NCBI GenBank assembly: GCA_963743635.1
Contig: CAVUQO010000003.1
Location: 352,001 to 416,000 of the forward strand
Source of the DNA: Candidatus Babeliales bacterium
GTDB lineage: Bacteria; Babelota; Babeliae; Babelales; Vermiphilaceae
DNA: 64,000 nt
Direction: 5' to 3'
A model generated the notes under the pieces. The model searched no databases, was not told the origin of the DNA, and saw only the letters and a program-made list of their open reading frames with translations. Made by a program: the position numbers and the translations under genes. Of the stretch, positions 4,345 through 36,427 are shown piece by piece (position 1 is the first letter of the stretch; each line of letters starts with the position of its first letter).

Positions 4345-4485
4345 AGGTTACTTTCATTTTAAATATGATTTGAACCATAGTTTACGTGATAATTCCTTCT
4401 TCTTCAATTATCTATGCAGGTTTCTTGTAAAATGCGCGTTGCTTGCGTTATTCTGGCTCAAAGTTTTTTAACAAAGGATAGTGAT

Positions 4486-6375
4486 ATGAAACAAATGCAT
4501 GATATACAAGTTCTTATCGAGCGAAAGGCTTATAATATACGCCTTGCTTCAATAGTCATGACGTCAACGGCCGGGTCAGGACATCCTACCTCATGTCTCT
4601 CGGCAGCGGATATTGTTGCCACGCTTTTTTTCTATGCGATGCACTACGATCCTGAGCATTTTGATAATCCCAATAATGATCGCTTTATTCTTTCAAAGGG
4701 GCATGCAGCGCCCGTGTTATACGCGGCATGGAAAGAGTTGGGGATGGTCACTGAGCAAGAGTTACTGACCTATCGTGATATTCATTCGAATCTAGAGGGG
4801 CATCCAACTGCACGTTTTAAATATGCTGAGGCTGCAACCGGTTCATTAGGCATGGGACTTTCAATTGGCGCGGGCATGGCGCTCGTTGCGCAGCGCGATA
4901 AACGCAGTGCACATACATTTGTCCTGCTCGGTGATAGTGAACTTACAGAAGGGAGCGTGTGGGAAGCAACTGAGATCGCCGCATACTACAAACTTAACAA
5001 TCTCGTGGGGATCGTCGATTGTAATCGATTGGGACAAAGTACCGAAACCATACACGCATGGCATGTGCAGCGTTACGTCGATAAATTTGAAGCATTTGGT
5101 TGGAAAACGATCGTAGTTGATGGGCATGATGTGCACCATCTCATGGGTGCATTTGATCGGGCGCGTGAAGTTGAAGATCGGCCAGTAATGATCATTGCTA
5201 AAACGATCAAAGGGTATGGCGTTGAACAAGTTGAAAACAAAATGGGCTTTCATGGAAAGGCATTTCCAAAAACAGAAATGAATGACATTCTTGCAGAACT
5301 TGCGGCACGTTTTCCAAAAGCAGCTGCGTATACGGGTGATGACCGGGCATTTATGCCGACAGCACCAGCTCCCTCCGAAAATAACACGCCTGCAACGCTT
5401 TCAGAATGCGTTGATCTGGTAATGCCAGATCCACATTTTGCGCAGAGGGATTATATCTCAACGCGCAAGGCGTATGGTCAAGCACTTGCAGCATTGGGCG
5501 GCCATTGCAAAAATGTAGTGAGTCTCGATGCGGAAGTGAAAAATTCAACGTATGCAGATTTATTTGAACACAAACATCCTGAACGTTTTTTTCAATGCTT
5601 CATCGCCGAACAAAATATGGTGAGCATGGGAGTAGGTATGGAACGTCGGGGTAAGGTGCCCTTTATTTCCACATTTGGCGCATTCTTTAGCCGCGCCCAT
5701 GACCAAGTTCGGATGGCAGCCATCGGCTCGTCAGCGTTGAGATTAGTGGGCTCTCATGCAGGGGTTTCGATTGGACAGGATGGCCCTTCCCAGATGGCGC
5801 TTGAAGACATTGCCTTAATGCGGGCGATTCCTGGATCAGTGGTGCTGTATCCTTGCGATGGGGTGAGTACCCATAAATTGGTTGCGCAGATGGCGCTCTA
5901 TGATCAGGGGATTACCTATTTACGCACAACGCGTATGGATACGCCGGTTTGGTATTCAATTCAAGAAGAGTTTCCCATTGGCGGTTGCAAAGTGTTGGCG
6001 GAAAGTGAAGGGGATCAAGTCTGTATCGTTGCTGCTGGCATTACATTGGTAGAAGCAACGAAGGCGCGCGATCAATTGCTACAGGAAGGAGTTTTAGTCG
6101 CCGTCATTGATCTTTATTCCATTAAGCCATTGGATTACGACACATTATTACGCGTTGGTATGCAAACCAAATATGGGATCATAACGGTTGAAGATCATTA
6201 TCGTGAGGGCGGTCTCGGTGAGGCAGTTCTTTATGCATTGCGCAATACCGCTATTCCGATTCAGTGTCTTGCAGTAACACAGTTGCCGCGATCAGGAAAA
6301 CCGGAAGAGTTGCTTGCGCTTATGGGGATTGATGCAGCGGGGATTATACGGGGCGTAAAAGCGATGATTAAGTAA
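4486..6375 (+). CDS. tkt: Transketolase (single-chain, animal-TKT-like type)
   Basis: SGHPTS, DRFILSKGHAAP, TGSLGMG, GDSE..EG..WEA, IAEQNMV, GQDGPSQM, TVEDH; start at ATG 4486 after AAGGA. Confidence 0.95.
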   Translation: MKQMHDIQVLIERKAYNIRLASIVMTSTAGSGHPTSCLSAADIVATLFFYAMHYDPEHFDNPNNDRFILSKGHAAPVLYAAWKELGMVTEQELLTYRDIHSNLEGHPTARFKYAEAATGSLGMGLSIGAGMALVAQRDKRSAHTFVLLGDSELTEGSVWEATEIAAYYKLNNLVGIVDCNRLGQSTETIHAWHVQRYVDKFEAFGWKTIVVDGHDVHHLMGAFDRAREVEDRPVMIIAKTIKGYGVEQVENKMGFHGKAFPKTEMNDILAELAARFPKAAAYTGDDRAFMPTAPAPSENNTPATLSECVDLVMPDPHFAQRDYISTRKAYGQALAALGGHCKNVVSLDAEVKNSTYADLFEHKHPERFFQCFIAEQNMVSMGVGMERRGKVPFISTFGAFFSRAHDQVRMAAIGSSALRLVGSHAGVSIGQDGPSQMALEDIALMRAIPGSVVLYPCDGVSTHKLVAQMALYDQGITYLRTTRMDTPVWYSIQEEFPIGGCKVLAESEGDQVCIVAAGITLVEATKARDQLLQEGVLVAVIDLYSIKPLDYDTLLRVGMQTKYGIITVEDHYREGGLGEAVLYALRNTAIPIQCLAVTQLPRSGKPEELLALMGIDAAGIIRGVKAMIK

Positions 6376-6380
6376 ATTAC

Positions 6381-7355
6381 TTACGCAACGACTGGCTGAT
6401 TCTTTTTTGCGCGTGCAAGTTTGAATGGTTTACCATTGGTGCGGACATGCAACATTTTGATGAACTTGGTAAATGGTTTTTCTGCTGGTGCTTCTTTATG
6501 CCAATGATCCATGGTGTTGATAATATCTGCCAAAAAAGTCAGAAATCGTGGAAACACAAATTCACTATGGAAAATAGAACGGCCATTCATTTTTATTTTG
6601 ACTTGTTCGAGATTGTCTTGATCGGGGAAGTAACGGCCTGAAAGCCAGTGTGATGATTTGGTGCCATTCTTATAAAAACCTTGAGGATCAAGAATTTGGC
6701 ACATATCAATTTGCGAGTAAATGCAAAATATTTTTTTAAATGCCGGATCTTTAATGAGTGATGCTGTTTTATCTTGAACAGGGCAGGCGAGTAAAATCAG
6801 CTCATCCACCGTGAAGCCTTCTGGTTTTGAGGGAATGCGCGCTAAGTTGAGTGCGACATTGCCGCCATGACTATGACTTATAATACGCACGCTTGGCTTT
6901 ACATTATGACGTATTTGGTATTGCTCAAGAACTGCTATGAGATCTCTATAAAGATGTTCTGCGGCTTGTTCCCGTACGCCAAAATCAAGTTTGCCTGACC
7001 AACCAAAAATGTAGAACGTATCGTGTGAAAAGAGATTGGGCGCAGCATTGACCAATGTTTTACCTATTTGGTGCATATGATAGCGCGGTTCATAGTCGCG
7101 TGCCAAAGAAAGCCCAGGCCTTGAATAGATGAAGTTGCGCAGTGCGCCAGCTACGTCAAAAAGCCGTGTGCCGTGAATCCAGATGGTGATCGTATGATTG
7201 TCTTTTGCTTCAGGAGACACATCGATCGCGGTACGGACATTTTTAGGCGCAAAGACGACCTGCTTTTTCAGTGTCTGGAACCGTTGGGAAGAACAGCCAG
7301 GCAGCATAATCAGCAGTAGATAGAACAGGTGGAGGTAGGAAATGCGGGATTTCAT
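6381..7355 (-). CDS. Alpha/beta hydrolase-fold lipoprotein
   Basis: Lipobox-like LPGC; IWIHGT; nucleophile elbow SHSHGG. Confidence 0.75.
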   Translation of the reverse strand: MKSRISYLHLFYLLLIMLPGCSSQRFQTLKKQVVFAPKNVRTAIDVSPEAKDNHTITIWIHGTRLFDVAGALRNFIYSRPGLSLARDYEPRYHMHQIGKTLVNAAPNLFSHDTFYIFGWSGKLDFGVREQAAEHLYRDLIAVLEQYQIRHNVKPSVRIISHSHGGNVALNLARIPSKPEGFTVDELILLACPVQDKTASLIKDPAFKKIFCIYSQIDMCQILDPQGFYKNGTKSSHWLSGRYFPDQDNLEQVKIKMNGRSIFHSEFVFPRFLTFLADIINTMDHWHKEAPAEKPFTKFIKMLHVRTNGKPFKLARAKKNQPVVA

Positions 7356-7950: not shown

Positions 7951-8379
7951 ATGGATACAATGGTATATATGTGGCTCAGCATCGCAGTATGCTTTCTCAT
8001 TTTTGAGGTCGGCCATCCCGGACTATTTTTCTTCCTTTCATTTTCATGCGGCGCGGTGTGCGCAGCAGCTCTGAGCTACGGTGAGTGTGGGCTTACCTGG
8101 CAAATTATTGGTTTTTTAATCAGTGCGGCATGTTCGTTACTGATCATGCGAAGCTTATTTCTAAGTAATGCGCAGAGCGGTACCCCGACCAATGTTTATG
8201 CATTGCAAGGAAAACATGCGGTGGTAACCCGTGCCATTCCAGCCCATGGTGTAGGGTCTGTGAAAGTAGGCGGGGAAGAATGGACTGCTGAATCGTTACA
8301 CAATGAGGCATATGCAGTTGGTACGCGTGTGACCATTATTCGAGTGCAAGGTGCTCGGGTGATCGTTGAGCGCGCTTAA
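7951..8379 (+). CDS. nfeD: NfeD-like (YbbJ) membrane protein
   Basis: Hydrophobic N-terminus plus OB fold GSVKVGGEEWTAES; directly upstream of SPFH gene. Confidence 0.9.
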   Translation: MDTMVYMWLSIAVCFLIFEVGHPGLFFFLSFSCGAVCAAALSYGECGLTWQIIGFLISAACSLLIMRSLFLSNAQSGTPTNVYALQGKHAVVTRAIPAHGVGSVKVGGEEWTAESLHNEAYAVGTRVTIIRVQGARVIVERA

Positions 8380-8418
8380 CATAATAAAAATAATCCTTAC
8401 ATAGGAAAGGGGTCGATT

Positions 8419-9402
8419 ATGATCTTAGAATTTGGCATTTTTGCCATCGTAGTATTCATCTTTTTGATGGTGTTCATTGCAAAAGCAATTTACTTGGTAA
8501 GGCAATCTGAAGTAATGGTCATTGAAAAGTTTGGTAAATTTAGTCGCGTATTGCATCCAGGGATTCACTTTGTGATTCCGTTTGCAGAAACTCCGCATCA
8601 AGTAACCTGGACATTCATCTATCAAGGTGAAGGCAAGCGTTATTATCGTGTGACCAAGCAAGTAACGCGTATTGATATGCGTGAGGCGGTCTATGATTTT
8701 CCAAAGCAAAATGTGATCACTAAAGATAACGTCACCATGGAAATTAACGCGTTGCTCTATTATCAAATTACTGATCCTAAAGCAGCAATGTATGAAGTAT
8801 ATGATCTTCCAGAAGCTATCGAGAAATTAACACAAACAACATTGCGTAACGTCATCGGCTCTCTTGATCTTGATGAATCACTCGTTTCACGTGACCAAAT
8901 CAATGAAAAGTTGCGCATCATTCTTGATGAAGCAACGGATAAGTGGGGCGTCAAAGTGAACCGCGTTGAGCTGCAAGAGGTAAATCCTCCAGCAGACATT
9001 CGTCAGGCGATGGAAAAGCAGATGCGCGCTGAACGCGATCGTCGTGCGGTAATTTTGGAAGCTGAAGGTAAAAAGCGAGCAGCTATTTTGCAAGCAGAAG
9101 GTGCGCAAGAAGCGGCAGTGCTTGATGCACGCGGTGAAGCTGAATCAAAGGCAATTCGTGCCCAAGGTGAAGCGGATGCACGCTTAAAGATTGTTGAGGC
9201 CGAAGCAAAGGCAATTGGCATGATTACTCAAGCGGTGCCGGGCGTCGATCCATTGCCATACATGATTGCGTTGAATTACATCAAAATGATGCCTGAATTA
9301 ACGGCAGGTAAGAATGATAAGCTTATCTTGGTTCCGTACGAGGCAAGTTCACTCGCTGGCTCATTAACGGCAATGAAGAAGATGTTTGAAGAAATCAAAT
9401 AA
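8419..9402 (+). CDS. qmcA: SPFH/band 7 (QmcA/stomatin-like) protein
   Basis: VITKDNV, QTTLRNVIG, WGVKVNRVE, AMEKQMRAERDRRA. Confidence 0.93.
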   Translation: MILEFGIFAIVVFIFLMVFIAKAIYLVRQSEVMVIEKFGKFSRVLHPGIHFVIPFAETPHQVTWTFIYQGEGKRYYRVTKQVTRIDMREAVYDFPKQNVITKDNVTMEINALLYYQITDPKAAMYEVYDLPEAIEKLTQTTLRNVIGSLDLDESLVSRDQINEKLRIILDEATDKWGVKVNRVELQEVNPPADIRQAMEKQMRAERDRRAVILEAEGKKRAAILQAEGAQEAAVLDARGEAESKAIRAQGEADARLKIVEAEAKAIGMITQAVPGVDPLPYMIALNYIKMMPELTAGKNDKLILVPYEASSLAGSLTAMKKMFEEIK

Positions 9403-9416
9403 ACAGAATACATAAC

Positions 9417-9453
9417 AAAAAAGAGGGACCTCTTTATCGGAGGTCCCTCTTTT
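9417..9453. terminator. Bidirectional intrinsic terminator
   Basis: AAAAAAGAGGGACCTC-tttatcg-GAGGTCCCTCTTTT between convergent genes. Confidence 0.85.
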
Positions 9454-9457
9454 CATT

Positions 9458-9538
9458 TCATGAGTGTGATTTATGTTCCTTATTCTTTTCCCGCAGCAAT
9501 GCGCTGGTAAGAAGTAGTGGAATTAATAACTTTTTCAT
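9458..9538 (-). pseudogene. Signal-peptide-only stub closing the GNAT array
   Basis: MKKLLIPLLLTSALLREKNKEHKSHS*; 9499-9551 is 50/53 identical to 10074-10126. Confidence 0.6.
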
Positions 9539-10113
9539 GATCGTACTCTTTTATTTATGTGTAACTTTTTCATCATGAATAACCACATTGGTCTATCATG
9601 CTCTGGTTGGGAATACTGTTGTTTTTTATAAAAATGTTGGGCATCGGAGATACTATTGAGGTACATATAATCAATGTTATTCTGGATAGCGTTATCTTCA
9701 GCTTTTTTTAAAAGTAATGCACCCAATCCTTTACGCTGTTGCTTAGGATCAACAACGAGCCACTCTATTTTGGCGCCATTCATTTTGTTTAGTTCGATCG
9801 TTGAGGGGCAGTCAGGCATTTCATTATAAGCAACAGCGCGCGACTTCGCTTGATATATAATACAACCGAGGAGACAATCAGGACGATTTGAGCGTGTTTT
9901 GCGATAACTTCTAACCGCAACATCAATCCAATTTTTTCGGCAAGCTCTGTGACGAGTGACCGCGGCTGGTGGCGTTATCCAGGTAAATTCTTGCGTAAGA
10001 AGTTTGAGTACGGAGTCTTTATCTGTTTCATGATTAAATGACCTGATGCGCACATCTTCCATTGCATGCATCGATGCGCTGGTAAGAAGGAGTGTAATTA
10101 ATAACTTTTTCAT
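9535..10113 (-). CDS. Exported GNAT acetyltransferase (array member 1)
   Basis: SMHA|ME; acetyl-CoA motif VVDPKQQRKGLGALLL; AQHFYKKQQY. Confidence 0.88.
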   Translation of the reverse strand: MKKLLITLLLTSASMHAMEDVRIRSFNHETDKDSVLKLLTQEFTWITPPAAVTRHRACRKNWIDVAVRSYRKTRSNRPDCLLGCIIYQAKSRAVAYNEMPDCPSTIELNKMNGAKIEWLVVDPKQQRKGLGALLLKKAEDNAIQNNIDYMYLNSISDAQHFYKKQQYSQPEHDRPMWLFMMKKLHINKRVRS

Positions 10114-10117
10114 GATC

Positions 10118-10606
10118 TTACTCTTTACTAATAGTCTTGCGCATGTAAAAGGGTATCTCTGTGTCTTCATAAGCATATCCTAGCTGTTCATAAAAAGATT
10201 GCTTGCCATTGATAGGCTGAAGAAATAGGTGATGGTCTTTTTTAGATGTCTGTATTGATTTTTCAACATGTTGCATGAGTAATTGGCCGTATCCCTTACA
10301 TCGATATTCGCGTGCAACAGATACTGCTTTGATTTCAGTCTCCGTTATTGATGAGCGATCCGTTGTTTGATATACAATGGCTCCCAATACTCTGTCTTCG
10401 CGCTTAGCCCGTGGTTTGACAAGAACATTTATTGTTATGTTAGGGTTACTTAAAATGTTGATGTCAATTAATGATTTGAATAGATCGAGGGCATTGCTTT
10501 GTTTTGCGGGATCAAACGGCACAATGCGCACATCTTCCATTGCATGCATCGATGCGCTGGTAAGTAGGATGGTTAGTAAGGCAAAAAGAGATCGTTTAGT
10601 ATACAT
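10118..10606 (-). CDS. Exported GNAT acetyltransferase (member 2)
   Basis: SMHA|ME; VSVAREYRCKGYGQLLM; FYEQLGY. Confidence 0.9.
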   Translation of the reverse strand: MYTKRSLFALLTILLTSASMHAMEDVRIVPFDPAKQSNALDLFKSLIDINILSNPNITINVLVKPRAKREDRVLGAIVYQTTDRSSITETEIKAVSVAREYRCKGYGQLLMQHVEKSIQTSKKDHHLFLQPINGKQSFYEQLGYAYEDTEIPFYMRKTISKE

Positions 10607-10619
10607 ATAAATTCCTTTC

Positions 10620-11279
10620 TTAGATTAAAAATTTAGTAAAGTGAAGACCTATGCCTTTGTTTTTGTTTTCTGTGCGGTCGTCTTTCACTTGCTTAAGCAT
10701 ATCTTGCATGTCTTCATTCATAGGGAGTGCCATCGAATCATGGGTTGTAGCATCGGCAGTGGTTTTAAAATATCCATGTTTTTCATAGAATGATCGAGTT
10801 CTATTAATTGCAACGAGGGCGATAATGTCTTGATCGGTCTTCTGCGCTACTTGCCCAATATGATTCAATAATCGTTGTCCAAATCCGTGTCCAGCACGCT
10901 TGTTAGTTTTGCGAAATTTATTAGCTATGGCCAGATAATCGAGCCGTAAAATATTAAGATAAGCTGATGAGTGTTTATATCTTCGTATGTCTGAAAAAGC
11001 TGCTTTATGCGGTATTGTTTCATTGTTCCAGATCGCAAAGCCAGCCGGTTTTTTTAGATATTCTAACACGGCGATTTTTGTTTCCGGATGATCTGTAGGT
11101 TTTGTAAGTTCTGAAGGGGGTTCTTCAGCATCAGGAAATGCGTTTAAGAAGATAGCTGAAACTTTTTTACCATGGGTCACGGGATTATAATCCACAATGC
11201 GTATCGCATCCTGATCCATTGCATGCAGCGAAGCACTGGCAAGAAAGAGAGCGAGTAGGTAGGAGTGTATTAATTTCAT
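10620..11279 (-). CDS. Exported GNAT acetyltransferase (member 3)
   Basis: SLHA|MD; LAIANKFR..AGHGFGQRLL; FYEKHGY. Confidence 0.88.
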   Translation of the reverse strand: MKLIHSYLLALFLASASLHAMDQDAIRIVDYNPVTHGKKVSAIFLNAFPDAEEPPSELTKPTDHPETKIAVLEYLKKPAGFAIWNNETIPHKAAFSDIRRYKHSSAYLNILRLDYLAIANKFRKTNKRAGHGFGQRLLNHIGQVAQKTDQDIIALVAINRTRSFYEKHGYFKTTADATTHDSMALPMNEDMQDMLKQVKDDRTENKNKGIGLHFTKFLI

Positions 11280-11291
11280 CCTTTGTCCTTG

Positions 11292-11942
11292 TTAAATGAA
11301 ATTTTTATTTAACAAGGTGGATTTTTGCTGTTCATAGTTTTCTTCACGTTTGGCGATTACCTCACGTAATATCTCTTTCATAGTATCATTCAGCGGCAGT
11401 GCCATGCGGTCTATTGAGAGTTGGCGAGGCAGAGTGTTGATGAAACCATTCTTTTCATAAAAAGGTCGCGAACCATAAGCTGCATGGAGGGATATGACAT
11501 CAGTCTCATATTCGTTCGCTTTTTCTCTAATGTAGTGTAATAAAGAAGAGCCAAGGCCCTTGCCTGCTCTGGTGTCAGTGTGGCGATGATTCTTGTGTAT
11601 TGCGATATGGAGGATCCGTACTATGTTAAAGTGTGTACGATTGTGGGTAGGATTATATATATCATTGAAGGCTTGATGCTTGGTCAATATTTCCCTTTCC
11701 CAGATTGCAAAACCAACGGTTTTCCCGTTCTCTTTCAGCACCGTTATATGCGCGTTGAGAGAAGTTGGCGTATTAATGAATACTGGATCAAGATCTGCGC
11801 CGCCAAATGCCTCTGAAAAGATATTTTGAACTTTGAGGGCATATTTTTGTGTAGGATCGTATTCAATATAGGTGAGATCTTTATGCTCCATTGCATGCAG
11901 CGATGCGCTGGCAAGAAGGAGAGTGAGTAATAATTTTTTCAT
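11292..11942 (-). CDS. Exported GNAT acetyltransferase (member 4, paralog of member 3)
   Basis: SLHA|ME; IAIHKNHR..AGKGLGSSLL; FYEKNGF. Confidence 0.88.
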   Translation of the reverse strand: MKKLLLTLLLASASLHAMEHKDLTYIEYDPTQKYALKVQNIFSEAFGGADLDPVFINTPTSLNAHITVLKENGKTVGFAIWEREILTKHQAFNDIYNPTHNRTHFNIVRILHIAIHKNHRHTDTRAGKGLGSSLLHYIREKANEYETDVISLHAAYGSRPFYEKNGFINTLPRQLSIDRMALPLNDTMKEILREVIAKREENYEQQKSTLLNKNFI

Positions 11943-12463
11943 GAGATTTTCCTTTTTTCTGTTGTTATATCGCTATCACGATTGAGATATTTTATCATGG
12001 TTAAAGATTCCGGCGCTTTCTCTCTGAATGCGAGCTTTTTTGTATAAAATTTTTTCGATTCTGGAGTAGCATTTATTTCTATTAAATCGATGTTATTTCT
12101 TGCCTGTACACCATCTATAAGCATCTGCACGAGGTTGGTGCCATAACCCTTAGATCGCATTGATTCAACGATAGCAAGGTTATATACATGGCGCTTTATG
12201 CGATTATTTGCAGTAAGAAAATCCCGAAAAATGGCAAATCCAATAAACGTATTATTGAGTAATAATGCGCAATTGCTGCTTTTTTGATCGTATAAGGCGT
12301 CTGACGCACTGCCATCAAATGTGCTACGATATAATTCTTCCGCTGCATGCCCATGGACCGCTTTATTAAGCGCGACGAGTTGAAGGTCATCAGGATTACT
12401 CCAGAGTGATGTGCTGCTCAGCAATAGAAGCGGTAATAATATATTAATCCTGAGAAGAGTCAT
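11939..12463 (-). CDS. Exported GNAT acetyltransferase (member 5)
   Basis: Hydrophobic leader; LAIVESMRSKGYGTNLV; KKFYTKKLAF. Confidence 0.87.
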   Translation of the reverse strand: MTLLRINILLPLLLLSSTSLWSNPDDLQLVALNKAVHGHAAEELYRSTFDGSASDALYDQKSSNCALLLNNTFIGFAIFRDFLTANNRIKRHVYNLAIVESMRSKGYGTNLVQMLIDGVQARNNIDLIEINATPESKKFYTKKLAFREKAPESLTMIKYLNRDSDITTEKRKIS

Positions 12464-12468
12464 AAGGT

Positions 12469-13074
12469 TTACTTCTTGCACCGTTTAAATGGATTAATGC
12501 TATCGATTATTCGTCTAGAAAATGAAGGAGTAAGATTTTTTATCATGATGGTTGAATCATTGGCGTCAATATAGGTGAAATTGCGTAACTCAAATGAGTG
12601 TTTTGATTCATCCCTTGTCCATGTAGACATGCGCATAATGTGCATTTCAGCAGCCGTTTCTTCCAGACATTGTATGGCCTTAGGCTCATATCTTTCATAT
12701 CCTTCTGTCATGATAAGATCATCGATCTTGAAAAGTTCTGTATTGGCGCGGCGCGTGCGTTGGCGGCTATAGAGTGCGATTCCTGCTATTTCGTTATTCA
12801 CTAGAAACACCGTTGCTGTTTGCTGACCAATGCGGTCATTGTGAGACGCCAGAGGATCAGTCGTTCCTTCCAAGGCGCTCGGCATGAGCTGACTTATTCT
12901 AGATTGCGGAGCATCGGCAGGGATCCTGGCAGCCGTAAACATTGCTTGTGCTTGCTCAGCATGGCTTGCAGGATTGAAAGGCACCATAGTGAGTTTCTGC
13001 GTGCATCCCATGAGAGAAATGCCGCTGGTAATTGCGATCAGCGCAATGAATATATTATTTTTTAAGGTCTTCAT
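12469..13074 (-). CDS. Divergent GNAT-fold lipoprotein (member 6)
   Basis: Lipobox-like LMGC; shares MVPFNP and IAGIALY elements; CoA motif degenerate (EGYERYEPKAI). Confidence 0.7.
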   Translation of the reverse strand: MKTLKNNIFIALIAITSGISLMGCTQKLTMVPFNPASHAEQAQAMFTAARIPADAPQSRISQLMPSALEGTTDPLASHNDRIGQQTATVFLVNNEIAGIALYSRQRTRRANTELFKIDDLIMTEGYERYEPKAIQCLEETAAEMHIMRMSTWTRDESKHSFELRNFTYIDANDSTIMIKNLTPSFSRRIIDSINPFKRCKK

Positions 13075-13091
13075 AGTGTTGTTCTCCATTT

Positions 13092-13658
13092 TTAGTTATC
13101 AAAAATATTATTGATGTAATTATCAAATACAATGAGTGTGGGCTCGGAGGTAATATGCTTATACATATGGCTCCTGAATGGCCCCATACGTTTGAAGCCA
13201 AGCTTCGCATAAAAATTAATAGCATTGCCTGTCGATAGTACGGTGAGAGCTTTTATGCCGGAATCACGCGCTTGCTGTTCTATCTGAGCCATAAAATATG
13301 CAGCATAATGCAATCCGCGATACGCTTTATGTATGATTAGATAGTCGATATTACGCTTTAGTTCTTCAGAATCGGTATAAATTAGGGTTCCTACTGCAGT
13401 ATCATGAGCTAATAAAATTTTTATGATTCGGTTGGAGCGCAGGGAGGCTAAGATAAAATCAAATGAGGTATTGAAAAAGTCTTTTTTGAATAGATCACGC
13501 ATATACGGTAGATGTGTTTCTTCAAAGGGCACAGCCTTGAGAGTGAATGACTGGTGGATAGCCGCAAGCTCTCGATACATCTGTTCAGGATTCGGGCTCA
13601 TAGCTTGAATAGCTATAGTCTGTGCTATAATTGCTAATCCAATTAATAATTTCTTCAT
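13092..13658 (-). CDS. Exported GNAT acetyltransferase (member 7)
   Basis: AIQA|MS; LIIHKAYRGLHYA; AINFYAKLGF. Confidence 0.88.
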   Translation of the reverse strand: MKKLLIGLAIIAQTIAIQAMSPNPEQMYRELAAIHQSFTLKAVPFEETHLPYMRDLFKKDFFNTSFDFILASLRSNRIIKILLAHDTAVGTLIYTDSEELKRNIDYLIIHKAYRGLHYAAYFMAQIEQQARDSGIKALTVLSTGNAINFYAKLGFKRMGPFRSHMYKHITSEPTLIVFDNYINNIFDN

Positions 13659-13841
13659 GTATTACCTCCTATTCCAGGTCAAAAAAAACCTTTGTTTACA
13701 ATACAATATTAACATTTATTGAATATATTGCAAGCGGGTTATTTTCTATCTGTCACTAGCAGAGAGGTGGCTTTTTGCAGGTTCGTGAACCTGGGCCAAT
13801 AAGGTCTAGGGGAAACAAAAAGGAGAAAATAGAGACTGCTT

Positions 13842-14429
13842 TTAGGCGAGTTGAGGAATGCATTGAAGATTATTGGCCGGAATCGCATCAAGAGCTTGAA
13901 AAGGTTCAAGATTCTTAACCATATAATTTGAATAAGAGCTTGTCGCCTCAAAGCCGAGTCTGGTATAGAACGGCGTAGCGCGTGATACCGCGTTTAAAGA
14001 GATGCTGGTTATTCCTTGGCTGCGGGATAATGCTTCAAATTGCTGCATAAAATGGGTTCCGAGCTTGTGATTGTGATAATCGGGATCTATAGCCAATAGA
14101 TTGACGTAGCGCATAACCTGGCCATTTTGATTGATTTCGTCTTGGTACTTGATAAAGCCAATGACAACGCCATTAAACATCAAGACGTGGGCTGAGGGAT
14201 TGCCCTTGCCGCATAGGAGTGGGGTGGTAACGTACTCAGGAGGCACGCTGAAGGCCCTTGAATAGATTGATTTTGCCTGTTTGCCATGTTTGGCTTCTAC
14301 AAAAGGCACAACTTTAAGATCTAAGCCTTGTTTTACCGTAAAGTTGGCTGTTTGCTGATCCGCGCAAAGAGGTGCGCTGCCAGCCAAAATGAAGAGTAGC
14401 GCAAAGAGTCTACTTCTGAAAATATTCAT
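13842..14429 (-). CDS. Exported GNAT acetyltransferase (member 8)
   Basis: Leader ...APLCA; LAIDPDYHNHKLGTHFM; ATPFYTRLGF. Confidence 0.88.
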   Translation of the reverse strand: MNIFRSRLFALLFILAGSAPLCADQQTANFTVKQGLDLKVVPFVEAKHGKQAKSIYSRAFSVPPEYVTTPLLCGKGNPSAHVLMFNGVVIGFIKYQDEINQNGQVMRYVNLLAIDPDYHNHKLGTHFMQQFEALSRSQGITSISLNAVSRATPFYTRLGFEATSSYSNYMVKNLEPFQALDAIPANNLQCIPQLA

Positions 14430-14544
14430 GAAATTCCCTAAAATCCCATAAGATTGATGTTCCCTAACAATCTTTAGAATATATAAATTATAGGAAAGAG
14501 CAAAGTTCTTATTGGCTGTTTATGGCGTATTTAAGGGCTTTTAT

Positions 14545-14629
14545 GGGTGTTGCAGGGATGCAGAGACTATGTCTATTGCAGCTTTTCCCAAGCCGCCAGC
14601 CTCACTCAGTTCCTTGCGCAGGGTGTTAA
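14545..14629. repeat. Direct-repeat copy of the ABC-F 3' end (other copy 15352-15443)
   Basis: 14557-14629 matches 15369-15443 except a 2-nt deletion. Confidence 0.9.
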
Positions 14630-14634
14630 TATTA

Positions 14635-15279
14635 TCATATCTTATTGGCTTTGATCTCTTTAATGAGAGAATTGCAGAATAAATCACTGCATTGGTAGTC
14701 ATTTCTTCGATAGAAATTTTTAGGCCTATCGAGAGATACTAAAGAGACGGTAGATACACCATCTTCAGCGGCTAGATCCTCAAATTCTTTTAATGCCTGA
14801 GTGCCAATGCCATTGCCACGATAGTGAGCCCCTACTGAAAAATAACAGAGATGACGGATCTTGTGATATTTTAGGGGTAACTCCTTGCCATAAAACCATT
14901 TATGCGTGAGATAATAGAATAAATCCACCGTCGTATAATCATAAACTGTATCATCTTTATAAATCATAGAGCCCATTACAGTATTATTTGAGACTATGGC
15001 GAATGCTTTGTGGGTCTTTTCTTTCCCATACGGTTCACCCCCGTTTAGCACAGAAGGCACACAATAGGAGGGGAATGCCTCAGCCCAAATCTTAGATGCT
15101 TTCTCTCCATGTTTTGCATGGTTAAAAGCTACCAATTTGGGTTGGTTACGTTGGTTAATTGATTGGTTAATTGATTGGTTAATTGATTGTGCTAAAAATG
15201 ATTGAAACATGCCAAAAGCAGGTACATAGCCTGCGAAGGCCATGGCCATAGCAAAAAATGCTTTTTTGATTCTATTCAT
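14635..15279 (-). CDS. Exported GNAT acetyltransferase (member 9)
   Basis: PAFG|MF; FSVGAHYRGNGIGTQAL; NFYRRNDY; (SINQ)3 tandem repeat. Confidence 0.88.
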   Translation of the reverse strand: MNRIKKAFFAMAMAFAGYVPAFGMFQSFLAQSINQSINQSINQRNQPKLVAFNHAKHGEKASKIWAEAFPSYCVPSVLNGGEPYGKEKTHKAFAIVSNNTVMGSMIYKDDTVYDYTTVDLFYYLTHKWFYGKELPLKYHKIRHLCYFSVGAHYRGNGIGTQALKEFEDLAAEDGVSTVSLVSLDRPKNFYRRNDYQCSDLFCNSLIKEIKANKI

Positions 15280-15384
15280 ACATTGTCCCTTTTTTATTAC
15301 AGTTCCTTTAATTACATATAGAATACCATGTGTATAAAGGCTTGTAAAAAGGGGTATTGCAGGGATGAGATGCAGAGACTATGT

Positions 15385-17249
15385 CTATTGCAGCTTTTCC
15401 CAAGCCGCCATTGCCTCACTCAGTTCCTTGCGCAGGGTGTTAAATTTAGTCTGAGCAGTATCAAATTCAGGGGTACCGTATTCAAGATCAGCAAACTGCA
15501 GGCCGACTTGGGCTATCTGTTGCTCATATTTTTCGATTTTACGCTCAAGCAGTCGGAGTTCCCTTTTCTGATCGTCAGCTTTGTCATCCGTATCTGGAGC
15601 AGCTGAAGCTGTTTTTGCCGCTGATGTTTTCTTTTCTTTTGGTTCAGTCAGATTAGCGAGGCATTCTTTTTGATAGCCAAAATCATCATAATTGCCGTGA
15701 TAGATATGAGTGCCTTCTGGTGTCAGTTCCATAACGTGGGTAGCCAGGTCATTGATAAAATCCCGATCATGCGAAACGAAAAGCATGGTGCCTTCATAAC
15801 TTTGCAATGCCTTCAATAACACTTGCTTAGCGAAGATATCAAGATGGTTAGTCGGTTCATCAAGCAGGAGTAGGTTTGCTTGTTGGAGCAATACGCTGGT
15901 CATACCAACTCTATTTTTTTCACCACCACTGAGAACTTTTACTTTTTTATTCACATCATCATTGCTAAAAAGCATGGCGCCGAGCATGGTGCGTGCTGAT
16001 TGTTGGGTGGCGCTTGGGCAACGCAACAATATGTTCTCAATGACTGTTTTATTGCCATCAAGTGCACGGGTTTGATCTTGGTCGAAAATTGTATGATGTA
16101 CCTTCTCGCCAAAGGTTATGGTGCCAGATTGGCAGGGCAATGAGCCGGTAATCATATTAAATAACGTGGTTTTACCGACGCCATTGGGCGCAACTAATGC
16201 AACTTTTTGTCCACGTTCAATGGTGAATGAAACATTCTTAAAGATCTCACGTTTGCCAAAATGTTGGCTTACATTGTTCACCGTCAACACAGTACGCGCC
16301 GGAACGTTGCGTCGGAGGAAAGGTGAAATGACATTGTGCGCGGTGATGGCGGCAATACGATCAGTTCCATTTTCTCAAGCTGTTTTATCATACTTTGTGC
16401 CATCTTTGCTTTGGAGGCAGATGCGCGAAAGCGGTTGATCGTTTCTTTTTTTTGTTTGATATCTTTTTGTTGCTCGTTATACGCCTGTTCAAGTAAGGCA
16501 GTACGTGCTTCTTTTTGCTCTTCATAATCAGCATAACTGCCGGTATACATCATGCCATTACCCAGCTCAAGCTCGTAAATATGAGAACAAAGCTCATTAA
16601 GGAGGTAGCGTTCATGGCAGACAATCATAAAGCCAAACGATGCTTGATGCAGAAAATTTAAAAACCATTCTTTTGCAAAGATATCCAAGTGGTTGGTAGG
16701 TTCGTCAAACAGGTAAAAATCAGCCTCTTCAAGAAGGAGTTTGGCAAGAACGATTCGCATTTTCCAGCCGACGCTCAAATGCTGTACAGGCTCATGAAAG
16801 CGACTTTTATCAAAACCAAGACCTTGCAAAATGCGTTCTGCATGCGCACGCTTTTGTTCTGGATTGAGTTGCAAGAGCCGTTCATGAATATCAGCATAAC
16901 GGTTAAGATGGTCATGAACCGGATCGGTTTCAATTTTTTTCTCTAGGATTTCAGCTTCAAGCTGCAAAGCGGCGATTTCGGTAAATACGCTGAGCGCTTC
17001 ATCTAATATGCTTTTATCCGAATCCAAGACCACTTCTTGAGGCATATATGCAATTTTTTTGTTACTCAGTATGGTAATAGCGCCGCTATCAAGCATTTGT
17101 GGATGATGAATAGCTTTGAGCAGCGTTGATTTGCCCGATCCATTACGGCCAACAAGCCCGACCCGTTGGGATGCATCCACGGTGAAGGAAATGTTGTTAA
17201 AGATTGGTTGTGTGCCGAATGTTAAAGTAACGTTTTTTGCATATATCAT
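15385..17249 (-). CDS. ABC-F family ATPase (Uup/YheS-like), frameshifted near 16290-16330
   Basis: GRNGSGKST, LSVGW, DEPTNHLD in 16284..17291; APNGVGKTT, LSGGEKNR, DEPTNHLD in 15385..16290; removing two single bases restores MSFTFPPTQRSGRTVLTV. Confidence 0.9.
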
Positions 17250-17403
17250 GCTCTTATATCCTTGGTAAATGAAGCGTATGAGGAAAGCCAAGCTGTGAAT
17301 GATGACAATTTCCGGACAAACAGATTGTTTGCATAGAAAAATGTAATTGTTTTGTTAAGCTTACAGACTGTAGTATTTGTTATACGCATACTCTAGGATT
17401 TAA

Positions 17404-18408
17404 ATGTACCGTAAAAGAGCCCTTTTGGCTATCATATGCTTAGTTCCTGCTCTCACGCAGGCGAATCTTTTCTTTATTAGCCCCGTAGGGTATGTGATTC
17501 AAAAAATAGTGGACCGCAGGCACAGGCCGCAGAATGACCCTCATTGGGATAGCTTTGATCCTGAATCACGAGAAGGGAAAACAAGAAATGCTGGAGGCGT
17601 AGATTTAAACGATCAAGCTCAAGACGATCAGGTCGTAGGAACTATTCCCAATGAAATTGAGGACATTCTCGAGTTTTTACGCAATCCAGAGCAGTTTCGC
17701 AAATTTGGGGTGAAAATGCCAAAAGGTGTACTCTTAGTCGGGCCTCCGGGAACCGGAAAAACGTCCACCGCGCGTGAATTAGCGCGTAAAGCGGGGGCAT
17801 TTTTTATCAACGCCACCGGTTCAGAGTTTGTAAATACGTATGTCGGCGTCGGCGCTGCAAACGTCAGAAAGCTTTTTGAACGAGCTCGTAATGTTCTGAA
17901 AGAGGGCAAATATAAGTCGGTTATTATCTTTATCGATGAAATTGATGCGCTCGGCGCAGCGCGTTCTGATCGAGCAGATGGCGGCAATAGTGAATATAAT
18001 CAAACCGTTAATCAGTTGCTCAGTGAACTCGATGGCTTTAAGCGCGAAGAAAATATACTGGTTCTTGCGGCAACAAACTTTGAAGATTCACTTGATCAAG
18101 CATTATTGCGCCCTGGCCGTTTTGATAGACGGGCTTATTTTAAGTTGCCGGGCCTCGAAGATCGATTAACTATCTTAAAGCATTATTGCAAAAATCGTCC
18201 GGTCGATGAGGCGGTTGATTTGGCGAACATCGCCCAAAGAACCGATCATATGAGCGGTGCAGATCTTAAGAATATCGTCAATGAAGCTTCGATTGAAGCT
18301 GCGCGCGAGAAGGGCAGTACGGTGATTACTCCTCAGCATTTTGAGGTTGCAGTACAAAAAGCAGAACAGCGCAGAAACGCTCAATTACGCTCACTCTTTA
18401 GACGATGA
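17404..18408 (+). CDS. AAA+ ATPase (FtsH/CDC48-like module, no protease domain) with signal-like leader
   Basis: GPPGTGKT, FIDEIDA, pore loop YVG, SRH AATN..LDQALLRPGRFDR; no HExxH domain. Confidence 0.9.
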   Translation: MYRKRALLAIICLVPALTQANLFFISPVGYVIQKIVDRRHRPQNDPHWDSFDPESREGKTRNAGGVDLNDQAQDDQVVGTIPNEIEDILEFLRNPEQFRKFGVKMPKGVLLVGPPGTGKTSTARELARKAGAFFINATGSEFVNTYVGVGAANVRKLFERARNVLKEGKYKSVIIFIDEIDALGAARSDRADGGNSEYNQTVNQLLSELDGFKREENILVLAATNFEDSLDQALLRPGRFDRRAYFKLPGLEDRLTILKHYCKNRPVDEAVDLANIAQRTDHMSGADLKNIVNEASIEAAREKGSTVITPQHFEVAVQKAEQRRNAQLRSLFRR

Positions 18409-18569: not shown

Positions 18570-20201
18570 TCAAGAAATGATGCAGCGGTGGGGGCCAGAA
18601 GGTGTCCCTGGCGAGGTCGGCGAGGCAGTTGGGGTAGTAGGCCTGGATGTAATTTCTTTATCATGCGAAGGAGAAGAAGGAGAAGCAGATGATGATGATG
18701 ATGATGTATGCCCTGTTCTCTTGTTATAATTATCGATCACTTCTTGCGTTCTCGTTTGAATCTCAGTCATCGAGTAATCCTCGGTTTGTTCTACAAGTTT
18801 TTTGAGGGTATTGCTCTCACATGTTGTATTGATACGGGAATTAATAAAATAGCTAATGAGTTTTGCCCGTGCGGGTGCATTAGGATGGGTTACCCGAATT
18901 GCGGCTGCTCCTTCTAACTTTTCTAAATAGTGCTGTGCCTCGCAGAATATGAGCATGGGAATTTGCTGGTTATCCAGATGCTGGGTATTGAAAAGCATAT
19001 CAAGTATGAGCTGAACTCTTCGTGTTTTTGGGTGATTCAGGAGATCATCAAGGTTGTTTATGACGAGTGCTGCGCGGGAAGCATTTTTTTCTTCTGCCTG
19101 ATGCAATGTTGGAGTAACGAATTTGTCTACAATAGCCTTTTTAAGGGCGTTTTCATCGGTAAGGGAGGGGAGTTGTGCAAGTATATCACTTGCATCAATC
19201 CATGCTGGTGCGCCATTAATTCTCGCCATGAAATCCATAATGAGTGTTGTTTTCCCCGAACCTGGCGGTCCATGAAATATGATCACATGGGGTTGATCTT
19301 CTTGCTCAGCATCATTGAGCAGTTTAATGAGTTTTTTTGCGGCTGGTGGCATGAGATTTGGCTGACCAAAAGAGTTTTGAGGGTCGTTATATTCTGTTGC
19401 CTGATACTCTTTTGCCTTCTGCAGCGCAAGATGACGTGCTGTTACTCTGAAATCTTTAATGGATTTCTGATGACAATCAGCTGCCATTTCATCGATTACT
19501 TTTTGATCGCATGTGAGTTTAAATTGATTAAGAAAGTAGGAGGCAAGTTGTTTGCATTGGGGAATGGATGGATATTCTACGCCGATATTTTCAGTGTTTC
19601 CTTGGTTTATCCTCGAGGCTGATTCTGCAATGACGAGTAGATGCAACCGGCCGCAGTCAAATCTGGTTTTAAAGATCACGCGTCGCAATATTGATCCCAT
19701 AGGAGAAGGGTCTTTGTAGAGGTCATTAAAATCGTCAAATACTATCACGGCATGCGGGCATTTTTTTACCTGAGCTTGCTGGCATGCCAGTTCAATGAGC
19801 TTTATCCAGACATTATCTCGTATTTTCTCTTCGGAATTATAATCATTGTTTTCACAATGAGTTGTAAGCTGATTGTAGTGTGTATACACACGATCAGCGC
19901 CAAGAGCTTCGGTGAATTGGTCAATGAGTGTTGACTTACCACATCCTTTTGGCCCATAAAAAAAGATATAGTCGGGTTGTATATATTTATTAGGATTTTT
20001 TAATCGGTTTACGAGCTCTTTGCCTGCTTGCGGCATGAGGTCAGGTTTTGAGGGGATTTTGTGCAAATGGCTTTCATTAAAGGGCTCATATACTGTTGCC
20101 TGCATGAGATCTTCATGAGTGGTCAACGTTGTGGAGTTCATGGCCTGCGCGCTACATACCGGCAGCAGGATGAGCAGTGCAAGTTTATGGATCAAGTGCA
20201 T
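18570..20201 (-). CDS. Exported tandem AAA-like P-loop protein with C-terminal CaaX
   Basis: SAQA|MN; Walker A GPKGCGKS and GPPGSGKT; S/P/T linker; ends CIIS. Confidence 0.85.
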   Translation of the reverse strand: MHLIHKLALLILLPVCSAQAMNSTTLTTHEDLMQATVYEPFNESHLHKIPSKPDLMPQAGKELVNRLKNPNKYIQPDYIFFYGPKGCGKSTLIDQFTEALGADRVYTHYNQLTTHCENNDYNSEEKIRDNVWIKLIELACQQAQVKKCPHAVIVFDDFNDLYKDPSPMGSILRRVIFKTRFDCGRLHLLVIAESASRINQGNTENIGVEYPSIPQCKQLASYFLNQFKLTCDQKVIDEMAADCHQKSIKDFRVTARHLALQKAKEYQATEYNDPQNSFGQPNLMPPAAKKLIKLLNDAEQEDQPHVIIFHGPPGSGKTTLIMDFMARINGAPAWIDASDILAQLPSLTDENALKKAIVDKFVTPTLHQAEEKNASRAALVINNLDDLLNHPKTRRVQLILDMLFNTQHLDNQQIPMLIFCEAQHYLEKLEGAAAIRVTHPNAPARAKLISYFINSRINTTCESNTLKKLVEQTEDYSMTEIQTRTQEVIDNYNKRTGHTSSSSSSASPSSPSHDKEITSRPTTPTASPTSPGTPSGPHRCIIS

Positions 20202-21807: not shown

Positions 21808-23106
21808 ATGAATAAAAGAGTCATTCTGTTCAGCGTATTGGCGCTGTGTGCATCGATTGGACTTGTGCGGGCCGGTGAATTTGGCAGACGGAGTGTTGAG
21901 AAGGGGGAGAGTTCTCGCGGTGCTAAACAGGCAATGACGGATGAAGAACTCTTTGAAGTGCATAAAGAAGATGCGATCGCAGCAAGGAAAAGTCATATCA
22001 CTTACGTAGCAGGTGTAGGGGATTTGAGGACGGTTGCTGCCTGGCTTAACGGTAAGATCCCATCGCGTTTAACGCTGGCGCAGTTGCTGCTACTCAAAGA
22101 TCAGCATGGATCAACGGCATTAATGTGGGCATCGAGCAATGGTCATTCGGAAGTGGTGGAACTGTTATTAGCTTATGCGGATAGGGCGGGAGTTTTGACG
22201 GAGATGTTGAAAGCAAGAGCGCTGAACGGCAATACGGCATTAACATGGGCAGCGAGTAGGGGGCGTGATGAGATAGTGAAAATGTTGTTAAAAACAGCAT
22301 TAGAGGAAACAGACATTTTGGTGGATCTGATGCAAGTGAGGGATAATGACGGCAAAACGGCATTATCGTGGGCGGCGGGCAATGGGCATGTCCAAGTAGT
22401 GCGACTTTTATTACGAGTAGCGAAAGGGGAGGGCATTTTGGCAGACATCGTGCAAGCTCAGAATAATGAGGGATCAACGGCATTAATGTGGGCGGCGAGC
22501 AATGGGCACACTGAAGTGGTAAAAAATTTATTGGAGAAAGTTCAAGAATTTGGCATGAGCAAATCAGAGCTCTGGAGTATTGCATCGCATGCAACTAAAG
22601 AAGGAATGAGCACATTGATGAGTGGAGCTACTGCGGGAAGTAGAGAAATTGTGCAATTGATTTTGAACTCTGCTTATACCAATAGGCCCTCTGATAAAGC
22701 GTTCATCGATTTTGTTAATGCTCAAGATGCTCTAAAGGGTAGAACCGCAATTCAGTGGGCGATTCGTTTTGTGCAAGGGTCTGTCGAAAAAGAAAAAGAG
22801 CAACATTCTGAGGATGAGATGTTGGGCGTTATAGAAGAAATCTTCAAGTATGATAATTTCCCGCATTTGACTGTGAATATTATTTCGCAAGATAAGAACG
22901 GGAAAACTGCAATTTTTTGGGCAGCCTACGCAGAATGCAATAAAATTCTTAGGTTTTTTGAGAATGTAGCACGTCGGCGCAACTATAGTAAAAATAAATT
23001 CTTTGAAGAAATTGAAGCCGGGAAAGAAATGGGAAGAACGTCGACCACGAGATCGCGATCCCCAATTTTCCAAGGATCTTCATCATCTGCATCTTCATCT
23101 AAATAA
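21808..23106 (+). CDS. Exported ankyrin-repeat protein
   Basis: Leader LVRA|G; about seven G.TAL.WAA..GH..VV..LL-type repeats. Confidence 0.93.
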   Translation: MNKRVILFSVLALCASIGLVRAGEFGRRSVEKGESSRGAKQAMTDEELFEVHKEDAIAARKSHITYVAGVGDLRTVAAWLNGKIPSRLTLAQLLLLKDQHGSTALMWASSNGHSEVVELLLAYADRAGVLTEMLKARALNGNTALTWAASRGRDEIVKMLLKTALEETDILVDLMQVRDNDGKTALSWAAGNGHVQVVRLLLRVAKGEGILADIVQAQNNEGSTALMWAASNGHTEVVKNLLEKVQEFGMSKSELWSIASHATKEGMSTLMSGATAGSREIVQLILNSAYTNRPSDKAFIDFVNAQDALKGRTAIQWAIRFVQGSVEKEKEQHSEDEMLGVIEEIFKYDNFPHLTVNIISQDKNGKTAIFWAAYAECNKILRFFENVARRRNYSKNKFFEEIEAGKEMGRTSTTRSRSPIFQGSSSSASSSK

Positions 23107-24589: not shown

Positions 24590-24639
24590 ATATAACTTTA
24601 CAATCCTTATATAATTAATAAAATTCATATTACTGAGTA

Positions 24640-26744: not shown

Positions 26745-26753
26745 TGAGAACCC

Positions 26754-36334: not shown

Positions 36335-36427
36335 GTAATAACTTTGTATTAAAGAATTGTTCATATAATATGTGTGGATAGCTACTAACTACAATATCAA
36401 GAGTTAGGCATATTGGAAAGGGTAAAC

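Follow-up and report, generated by a model that had tools for sequence, protein, structure and literature searches.

Effectors with a GNAT fold and effector repertoires that carry Sec leaders are both already known, the latter from the Dependentiae. As excerpted here, the genome paper on Babela massiliensis reports signal peptides on 79 of 126 ankyrin proteins and on a family of AAA ATPases, takes these proteins to be secreted into the amoeba cytoplasm, and gives type II secretion as the sole secretion system found. The corresponding excerpt on Chromulinavorax destructans reports a signal peptide in 44% of the coding sequences and in 78% of the ankyrin proteins, together with outer-membrane vesicles, and the one on TM6 genomes describes type II components, with gspD in duplicate, and the pentose phosphate pathway as common, at a GC content of 27.4-40.8%. 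Among GNATs, the excerpted papers describe Legionella VipF, which is delivered by the Dot/Icm type IVb system, as acting on the host eIF3 complex (PMC10936415), Mycobacterium tuberculosis Eis as tied to intracellular survival and acetylating small molecules and a host protein (PMC5799202), and nematode Hg-GLAND1 as a secreted candidate effector that is putatively a GNAT and is believed to work inside the host plant (PMC4828791). Here, a tandem array of nine GNAT-fold genes (g1 to g9), each headed by a predicted Sec-type export leader, is described from a 64,000-nt stretch of the genome of a Candidatus Babeliales bacterium (contig CAVUQO010000003.1, positions 352,001 to 416,000; hereafter the window). 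The reading that fits the array best, and in which we place about even confidence, is that of Sec-exported acetyltransferases acting where host acetyl-CoA is available.

The window resembles the two Dependentiae in bearing leaders on ankyrin and AAA proteins, as far as the excerpts describe these; its TLC transporter and transketolase also fit such a repertoire, and its GC content of ~42% lies slightly above the range quoted in the excerpt on TM6. Because a route that starts with a Sec leader, continues by type II secretion or in vesicles and ends in the host cytoplasm is described for Dependentiae, such an export strategy is not without precedent, and the statement in the first-pass annotation of this DNA that no described system has this form does not hold for the strategy. 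What was not found described is a large, radiated family of leader-bearing GNATs in tandem arrays with an apparently dead lipoprotein paralog. A search of the open literature found no description of leader-bearing GNAT arrays in Dependentiae or more broadly, and the word "acetyltransferase" was absent from the main texts of the Babela, Chromulinavorax and TM6 genome papers (the Chromulinavorax supplements were outside the scope). The supplementary annotation table of Babela contains three acetyltransferases, each of which begins with a hydrophobic N-terminus; for one of them SignalP is positive in one mode out of three and TMHMM gives a single segment; Babela has two COG0456 genes, and the excerpted papers describe no GNAT expansion or array for Dependentiae. 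VipF is like the role proposed below in being a bacterial GNAT that acts on a host target with host acetyl-CoA, and unlike the array in its type IV delivery with no Sec leader route, as the excerpted paper presents it (PMC10936415). Eis combines two GNAT regions and a sterol-carrier fold in a single protein, for which the abstract mentions no Sec leader (PMC5799202), and Hg-GLAND1 is, in the excerpt, a single eukaryotic gene of bacterial origin whose product is secreted via gland cells (PMC4828791). GCN5 and PCAF are 16-21% identical to the array family, and the array proteins have no bromodomain or partner module. GNATs that modify small molecules (streptothricin, aminoglycoside 6'-, thialysine and polyamine acetyltransferases) have the same fold and size as the array proteins; they are cytoplasmic and not known to carry a leader. 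VipF combines two GNAT domains in one protein and does not form a paralog array.

The ORF (open reading frame) listing of the window gave nine consecutive co-oriented ORFs at 9535-15279 on the minus strand, with GNAT-fold products of 162-219 amino acids, and gene starts were placed where upstream Shine-Dalgarno (SD)-like motifs supported them best. The genes are g1 (9535-10113, 192 amino acids from the MKK start), g2 (10118-10606, 162 amino acids), g3 (10620-11279, 219 amino acids), g4 (11292-11942, 216 amino acids), g5 (11939-12463, 174 amino acids), g6 (12469-13074), g7 (13092-13658, 188 amino acids), g8 (13842-14429, 195 amino acids) and g9 (14635-15279, 214 amino acids), the last being the most divergent member of the array. 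Nine consecutive co-oriented GNAT-fold genes had been claimed in the first-pass annotation and were recovered, eight through Pfam and g6 through AlphaFold2 and Foldseek; of the span 9458..15443 given for them, 9458 is the stop of a remnant ORF and 15443 lies inside the 3' end of the neighbouring ABC-F gene. Adjacent genes from g7 to g1 are spaced by -4 to 17 nt, g8 and g7 by 183 nt, and g9 and g8 by 205 nt. As the gaps from g7 to g1 are so short, these genes probably form one seven-gene operon with g7 first. The array is closed by a terminator-like hairpin at 9418-9454 on the minus strand, a 15-pair stem followed by a T run, with an RNA folding energy of -24.6 kcal/mol (z -6.2; 0 of 200 shuffles as stable). 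Between g1 and the hairpin lies a leader-only ORF of 26 codons (9458-9538, minus strand) that encodes a leader and a few residues. Since the 59 nt at 9493-9551 match the g2/g1 junction (10068-10126) with 92% identity, this ORF is, by that likeness, what unequal recombination left of one more array copy, and it accounts for the start coordinate in the first-pass annotation.

The array is bordered by an SPFH/NfeD pair at 7951-9402 on the plus strand and by a split ABC-F gene at 15385-17291 on the minus strand. Direct repeats flank g9, the 3' end of the ABC-F gene being duplicated just downstream of it (14557-14630 and 15369-15447), with a 32-nt perfect core (14557-14588 and 15369-15400) and a length of ~95 nt overall by eye. 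Because g9 is bracketed by this duplicated end, it probably reached its present place by a separate event. Directly behind its leader, at residues ~33-45 (~15130-15200), g9 has QSIN three times over. The leader-coding DNA of g1-g4 (10032-10101, 10510-10579, 11189-11258 and 11861-11930) forms a family of 70-nt repeats with 60-84% identity to the g1 copy, the proteins concerned being just 24-33% identical to g1 or g2; gene conversion or a strong constraint on the 5' end could underlie it. The ABC-F ATPase gene consists of two ORFs that overlap at 16284-16290, a frameshift that marks either a pseudogene or an indel error. A promoter scan gave 11 sites against 18.6 in shuffles, fewer than expected.

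That the array proteins have the GNAT fold is certain, because it is given by Pfam for eight of the nine, by AlphaFold2 and Foldseek for g8 and g6, and by profile matches in the PDB. The matches were to Pfam Acetyltransf_1/7/10, at E-values of 5e-5 to 7e-11 (g1 4e-9, g2 4e-10, g3 5e-5, g4 6e-9, g5 8e-8, g7 9e-10, g8 7e-11 and g9 2e-7); all those of g3 were under the curated cut-off (best 24.0 bits vs 27), and g6 had no Pfam match. The structural check that the first-pass annotation had proposed, AlphaFold with Foldseek, matched the models of both g8 and g6 to solved GNATs. The g6 model, built on an 18-sequence alignment, had a mean predicted local distance difference test (pLDDT) score of 84.0, and its best match was 8osp_A (E 3.3e-7), with aminoglycoside 6'- and thialysine acetyltransferases next. 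The g8 model (66-sequence alignment, pLDDT 82.2) shows the strand and helix order usual for GNATs, and its residues 1-30, the leader, form a separate helix with a pLDDT of 50-57. The top Foldseek matches of g8 were the histone acetyltransferase domains of human GCN5, PCAF and Tetrahymena GCN5 (E ~1e-8; template modelling (TM) scores of 0.56-0.58 by query and 0.65-0.70 by target), among them chain 5trm_E (E 1.1e-8, TM 0.56/0.66), and behind them came many GNATs, including N-terminal acetyltransferases and GNAT toxins. A profile of 66 family members matched 159 PDB sequences at E<=1e-3, with 3pp9_A first (1.8e-14), Tetrahymena GCN5 second (1.8e-13) and human KAT2A further down (2.3e-11), and a Foldseek search of viral structures gave generic GNAT matches only. 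In the ESM Atlas, g4 likewise fell among generic GNAT clusters. The likeness of the family to GCN5 may serve as a lead only.

Leaders were scored with a crude n/h/c-region heuristic of our own that requires K/R in the n-region, a hydrophobic core, and small residues at -3/-1. All nine array genes were positive, compared with 18 of the 51 other window ORFs of >=120 amino acids (Fisher one-sided p = 3e-4), in agreement with the N-terminal export leader that had been reported for each gene. The array leaders contain 1-3 K/R, a core of 9-18 residues, compared with 7-15 in the usual description of Sec precursors, and a stretch of 15-21 uncharged residues, which in g9 extends to 37 with the QSIN repeats. 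The g1 leader reads MKKLLITLLLTSASMHAM, and typical leader ends are ..ASASLHA-M, ..SLWSNP (in g5) and ..APLCA-D. SD-like GGA/GGAG motifs stand 5-10 nt upstream of most leader-bearing ATGs (GGAGG in g7, weak at g5). An in-frame ATG occurs directly behind the leader in g1-g4 and g7 (..HAM / ..QAM), with no SD-like motif upstream of it, and there is no such internal ATG in g5, g6, g8 and g9. The mean pairwise column identity in the family is 0.33 for the leader, 0.29 for the pyrophosphate loop, 0.31 for alpha4 and 0.09-0.17 for the loops, which puts the leader in the same range as beta1, alpha4 and beta6. Because it is thus among the best-conserved parts of the family (0.33 vs 0.13 for the alpha1-alpha2 loop), the leader is a conserved and selected feature, and the array proteins are best described as precursors with predicted Sec-type signal peptides. 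A lipobox had been noted in one leader. The leader of g6 does end in L-M-G-C, which is kept in its relative P0027 and not in P0086, but the Met at -2 falls outside the strict consensus [LVI][ASTVI][GAS]C and our regular expression gave no match; the genes lgt (28538-29332) and lspA (61859-62329) are both within the window. The leaders of unrelated window proteins (e.g. 954-1769, 3506-3973, 18570-20201, 40561-41358 and 50104-50772) have a common ending, ..[HQSM]A-M and then a residue that is acidic or polar, which looks like a lineage-typical cleavage region, and the small ORFs at 3506-3973 and 954-1769 have only the leader in common with the GNAT family profile.

A profile of the nine proteins was searched against 1.84 billion representatives and matched 18,514 of them at E<=1e-3, for the most part generic GNATs; a threshold of E<=1e-10 left 277, and one of E<=1e-30 left 10. 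The 277 representatives show that the family is not private to the genome of the window, and among the best 150 matches it is represented by ~100 clusters at 50% identity. Among these 150 the leader rule was positive for 97, namely 46/50 at ranks 1-50, 35/50 at ranks 51-100 and 16/50 at ranks 101-150. The leader-negative entries of the top 50 are P0006, P0020 and P0032, which start inside or behind the leader and look like start-truncated family members, and P0040, which has no K/R; several of the other leaderless entries at ranks 1-100 are multi-GNAT or generic GNAT proteins. Close one-to-one relatives without a leader did not turn up among the ranked profile matches; the first-pass annotation had named close one-to-one cytoplasmic orthologs in free-living bacteria as evidence that would count against its reading. 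Most members share a stretch in which the leader is followed by [ED]-x-x-[IV]-V-P-F-[DN]-x-x-x-H, and the source names of the relatives are "GNAT superfamily", "RimI-like", "RimJ/RimL family" or "hypothetical protein".

The window paralogs are 13-32% identical to each other, and for eight of the nine array genes a relative from outside the window is closer than any window paralog. The nearest such relatives are P0006 for g1 (75%), P0012 for g2 (67%), P0027 for g6 (58%), P0017 for g7 (52%), P0046 for g5 (46%), P0008 for both g3 (45%) and g4 (43%), P0014 for g8 (42%) and P0069 for g9 (25%). A neighbour-joining tree without support values was built in Biopython from 89 sequences and 165 columns, the sample being the ten window proteins (the array and a further GNAT, g10, described below) and 79 matches of 140-260 residues from the first 100 ranks; longer and shorter entries were excluded, as were those with 99.5% or full identity to a window protein. 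Every array gene grouped with non-window members in a separate subclade, and g10 fell outside. As eight of the nine array genes are nearer to outside relatives and each sits in a subclade of its own, the duplications are old and the set of paralogs is maintained. The regions most variable in both sequence and size are the alpha1-alpha2 loop (9-34 residues), the beta2-beta3 region (18-37 residues) and the C-terminal tail (1-51 residues), and the divergence previously noted on the substrate side is therefore real, the acceptor-side loops being the most variable. P0006, P0017, P0027 and P0024 are each reported from a contig of 241,948 bp, and P0010 and P0048 from one of 8,389 bp; to judge from these equal contig sizes, several family members probably sit together on contigs elsewhere. 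P0019 and P0022 are reported from contigs of 2,677 and 2,528 bp.

P0007 (358 amino acids) and P0021 (354 amino acids) each combine a leader with a pair of GNAT domains in a single chain, as would result from the fusion of two adjacent array genes. The long matches P0076, P0078, P0088, P0053, P0084 and P0062 were considered as informative fusions and rejected, containing only repeated generic GNAT domains. Pattern scans covered 185,579 species with one genome each. A leader pattern from a 16-sequence alignment matched 13 stretches in these genomes, none of which was confirmed, and because this first pattern fits g2 exactly and g2 was nevertheless not among confirmed matches, the genome of the window is evidently outside the set. 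A pattern of the g8 type from a 3-sequence alignment matched 106 stretches in the same genomes, of which only one was confirmed. This lies on a 580-bp contig (L001, 1-580) of an assembly titled Piscinibacter defluvii, has 33% identity to the g8 type over residues 68-158, and would be a generic GNAT if not a stray contig. A word-index search with g8, for which the index is too coarse for the family, returned only g8 itself among 124 candidates.

In GNATs the pyrophosphate loop of motif A reads Q/R-x-x-G-x-G/A, and the tyrosine of motif B (FY..G[FY]) is the general acid. The strict loop [RQ]xxGx[GA] was found in four of the nine array genes, g1 (QRKGLG), g2 (RCKGYG), g5 (RSKGYG) and g9 (RGNGIG), and also in g10. 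A longer cofactor loop with a GxG end is present in g3 and g4, the first glycine is gone in g7 and g8, and g6 has nothing comparable, so that the earlier count of eight recognisable acetyl-CoA loops was generous. The count of eight FY..G[FY] motifs was correct (e.g. FYEQLGY in g2, FYEKHGY in g3 and FYEKNGF in g4); the motif is also present in g1 and is absent from g6 and g10. Across the 66-member alignment F154-Y155, G124 and G91 (g8 numbering) are >=90% conserved. In g6 the loop region reads EGYER..YEPKAI and the motif B site SFELRNF, and both losses are common to P0027 (58%) and P0086 (30%). Because these relatives have the same losses, g6 represents a conserved subtype, by its motifs probably a non-catalytic pseudoenzyme. 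The sister types g3 and g4 form a subtype with a conserved C-terminal extension (..MALPLN[ED]..) and a hydrophobic end ..[FL]-x-x-x-[FL]I, which are common to P0008, P0011 and P0016.

On the reading favoured here, the nine genes would encode lineage-specific, small, acyl-CoA-dependent GNATs made as Sec-type precursors. Eight of them would be cleaved by signal peptidase I, and g6 would be lipid-anchored through Lgt and LspA. By analogy with the Dependentiae, the mature enzymes might then leave the periplasm via a type II secretin or outer-membrane vesicles and act inside a eukaryotic host cell, in its cytoplasm, as no other compartment nearby is known to contain acetyl-CoA. Each old paralog may acetylate a different amine acceptor, such as protein lysines, N-termini or small molecules, and g6, without cofactor loop and catalytic tyrosine, would be a non-catalytic relative tethered to the envelope. 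Action inside a eukaryotic host is suggested by ankyrin and AAA proteins with the same leader, by a TLC-type transporter in the window, and by the pattern reported in the excerpts on Babela and Chromulinavorax. The fuller picture is offered as a tentative possibility: a widely radiated family of Sec-exported GNATs, kept in multi-paralog arrays by uncultured host-dependent bacteria, could form a host-directed battery with different targets, some members possibly being GCN5-like protein or histone acetyltransferases, together with a dead, lipid-anchored paralog for docking or regulation. The interpretation given in the first-pass annotation is thus partly supported.

Several points weigh against action in a host. 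Passage across the outer membrane is deduced by analogy, and host dependence from the content of the window. No secretion-system gene was identified when 52 of the larger window ORFs were compared with NCBIfam and 23 with Pfam, and no secretin or gsp gene was found in the 64-kb window. The leader rule was also positive for evident non-secreted proteins (transketolase with a doubtful start, Lgt and LspA), and because about one third of the other window ORFs look exported by this rule, export of the GNATs would be part of a genome-wide habit and no special mark of the array. The fold matches are generic, 500 chains or more reaching E<=0.001 for the g8 and g6 models, and the top PDB profile match, 3pp9_A, is a putative streptothricin acetyltransferase and no protein acetyltransferase. 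The glutamate in ..FAEVAFLAV.. (beta4) of Tetrahymena GCN5, which we take to be the catalytic base, pairs in the HMMER alignment with a variable position of the family (consensus k). As the strict pyrophosphate loop is present in only four of the nine, some members may have weak cofactor binding or none.

Part of this evidence would fit proteins that are exported and stay in the periplasm or bound to the envelope, using host acetyl-CoA that enters through porins or another acyl donor, with the bacterium's own envelope components, imported host metabolites (polyamines, amino sugars) or host antimicrobials as substrates. A leader proves targeting to the Sec translocon only, g6 with its lipobox-like end would be membrane-tethered, the streptothricin acetyltransferase leads the PDB profile ranking, the fold matches include acetyltransferases for aminoglycosides, thialysine and polyamines, and the window scans showed no outer-membrane secretion component. 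However, a pool of acetyl-CoA is not known from any periplasm, and at 810 Da acetyl-CoA exceeds the usual porin limit. The same leader on ankyrin and ATPase proteins is also hard to square with a periplasmic role, and a set of nine old paralogs that differ in their acceptor loops is better matched to many targets than to a single task at the envelope. The Babela authors, in the excerpt, read such leaders as host secretion. We regard the periplasmic explanation as rather doubtful; if it were correct, a host cofactor would be used in a bacterial periplasm, which would be unusual in itself. That most members are non-enzymes, i.e. exported GNAT-fold proteins that bind host or envelope ligands, would account for g6 and its relatives, for the missing first glycine in g7 and g8, for the longer loop in g3 and g4 and for the missing FY in g10, the more so as an environment free of acyl-CoA would relax selection on catalysis. 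It is nevertheless unlikely, given the conservation of F154-Y155, G124 and G91 at >=90% over 66 members, the position of the pyrophosphate loop (0.29) and alpha4 (0.31) among the best-conserved regions, and the scores that eight of the nine proteins still reach on Pfam GNAT models through motifs A and B.

Ordinary cytoplasmic acetyltransferases, e.g. for ribosomal proteins or antibiotics, would be at hand if the hydrophobic segment were an uncleaved inner-membrane anchor with the domain in the cytoplasm or an artefact of start-codon choice. The internal in-frame ATGs of g1-g4 and g7 could give leaderless products, some relatives are named "RimI-like" or "RimJ/RimL family", and the frameshifts in rpoD and the ABC-F gene call for care with gene models. 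The SD-like motifs, however, are at the upstream starts and none is at the internal ATGs, which g5, g6, g8 and g9 do not have at all; K/R ahead of the hydrophobic core (an N-in/C-out topology) and small residues at -3/-1 likewise speak against it, and the peptide is conserved over dozens of divergent members. Retention in the cytoplasm is accordingly judged highly improbable. The presence of TacT, AtaT, KacT and GmvT chains among the fold matches (E ~2e-7 to 8e-7) raises the question of GNAT toxins of toxin-antitoxin modules, of the TacT, AtaT and KacT type, that acetylate aminoacyl-tRNA. Those matches are no better than the ones to many other GNATs, gaps of -4 to 17 nt from g7 to g1 leave no room for antitoxin ORFs, and leaders on all members would take them away from tRNA, so that the probability of this explanation is close to negligible.

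If the Sec-exported acetyltransferases do reach a host, there would be a whole family of such effectors in bacteria that uses the general secretory route, not an injection system, and a new enzymatic class beside ankyrin repeats, proteases and ATPases in the poorly understood secretomes of Dependentiae-like protist parasites. The nine old paralogs would then be a natural series for mapping the host amines that are targeted. The family also lends itself to a clear and inexpensive test of whether, as a rule, a Sec leader on an acyl-CoA enzyme marks a host-directed protein in the genomes of uncultured intracellular bacteria.

A tenth exported GNAT had been placed at 50104. The gene g10 (50104-50772, plus strand) matches Pfam Acetyltransf_10 at E 3e-5 (24.4 bits vs a cut-off of 23.6); its GNAT assignment is upheld, but its own leader has no K/R and is negative by the leader rule. 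Five relatives, 58-67% identical, share this leader, in their case with an Arg, as well as its ..HAM end. When g10 was compared with the array-family profile using hhalign, the probability was only 13.5%, and g10 belongs to a GNAT family separate from that of the array. With g10 outside the array family and the leader kept in its relatives, two unrelated GNAT families carry this leader type in the genome. Babela gene_812 resembles g10 by eye.

Other window proteins with a Sec-type leader, as given by the leader rule and a domain scan, are an AAA ATPase (17404-18408, plus strand), a double P-loop NTPase (18570-20201, minus strand), an ankyrin-repeat protein (21808-23106, plus strand) and an HD-domain protein (36413-37540, plus strand), so that domains of cytosolic type seem to be exported here. 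The same two methods gave a leader on a lipase-like lipoprotein (6381-7355) and on a 1361-amino-acid fn3/beta-propeller protein (43008-47093), and this leader type also heads several small window proteins without a family. A TLC-type nucleotide transporter is encoded at 54696-56102 on the minus strand (PF03219, 99.8 bits; 95 bits vs a cut-off of 387 for the classical family in NCBIfam), and the window also contains an amino-acid permease, salvage enzymes and peptidoglycan genes. An ESM Atlas search gave PheT clusters that belong to three unrelated phyla.

The transketolase gene at 4414-6375 (plus strand) encodes the short type, with NF004559 as the best NCBIfam model. It scored ~600 bits against 3MOS, 3OOY and 4KXU and ~155 bits against 2R5N and 1QGD, which are presumably the human and the E. 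coli transketolases, respectively. The rpoD gene at 24323-26753 (minus strand) is spread over at least four frames, with region 1.1 at 26085-26753, region 1.2 at 25795-26172, regions 2-3 at 24931-25416 and region 4 at 24323-24952; its last piece continues into the apparent N-terminal part of the neighbouring CorC-like gene, and the local GC fraction is 0.366. As the gene is essential, the frame breaks suggest assembly indel errors. A single-strand annealing protein of the ERF superfamily is encoded at 33862-34482 on the minus strand (PF04404, E 5e-17); it is phage-like and stands alone between mraY and the permease gene.

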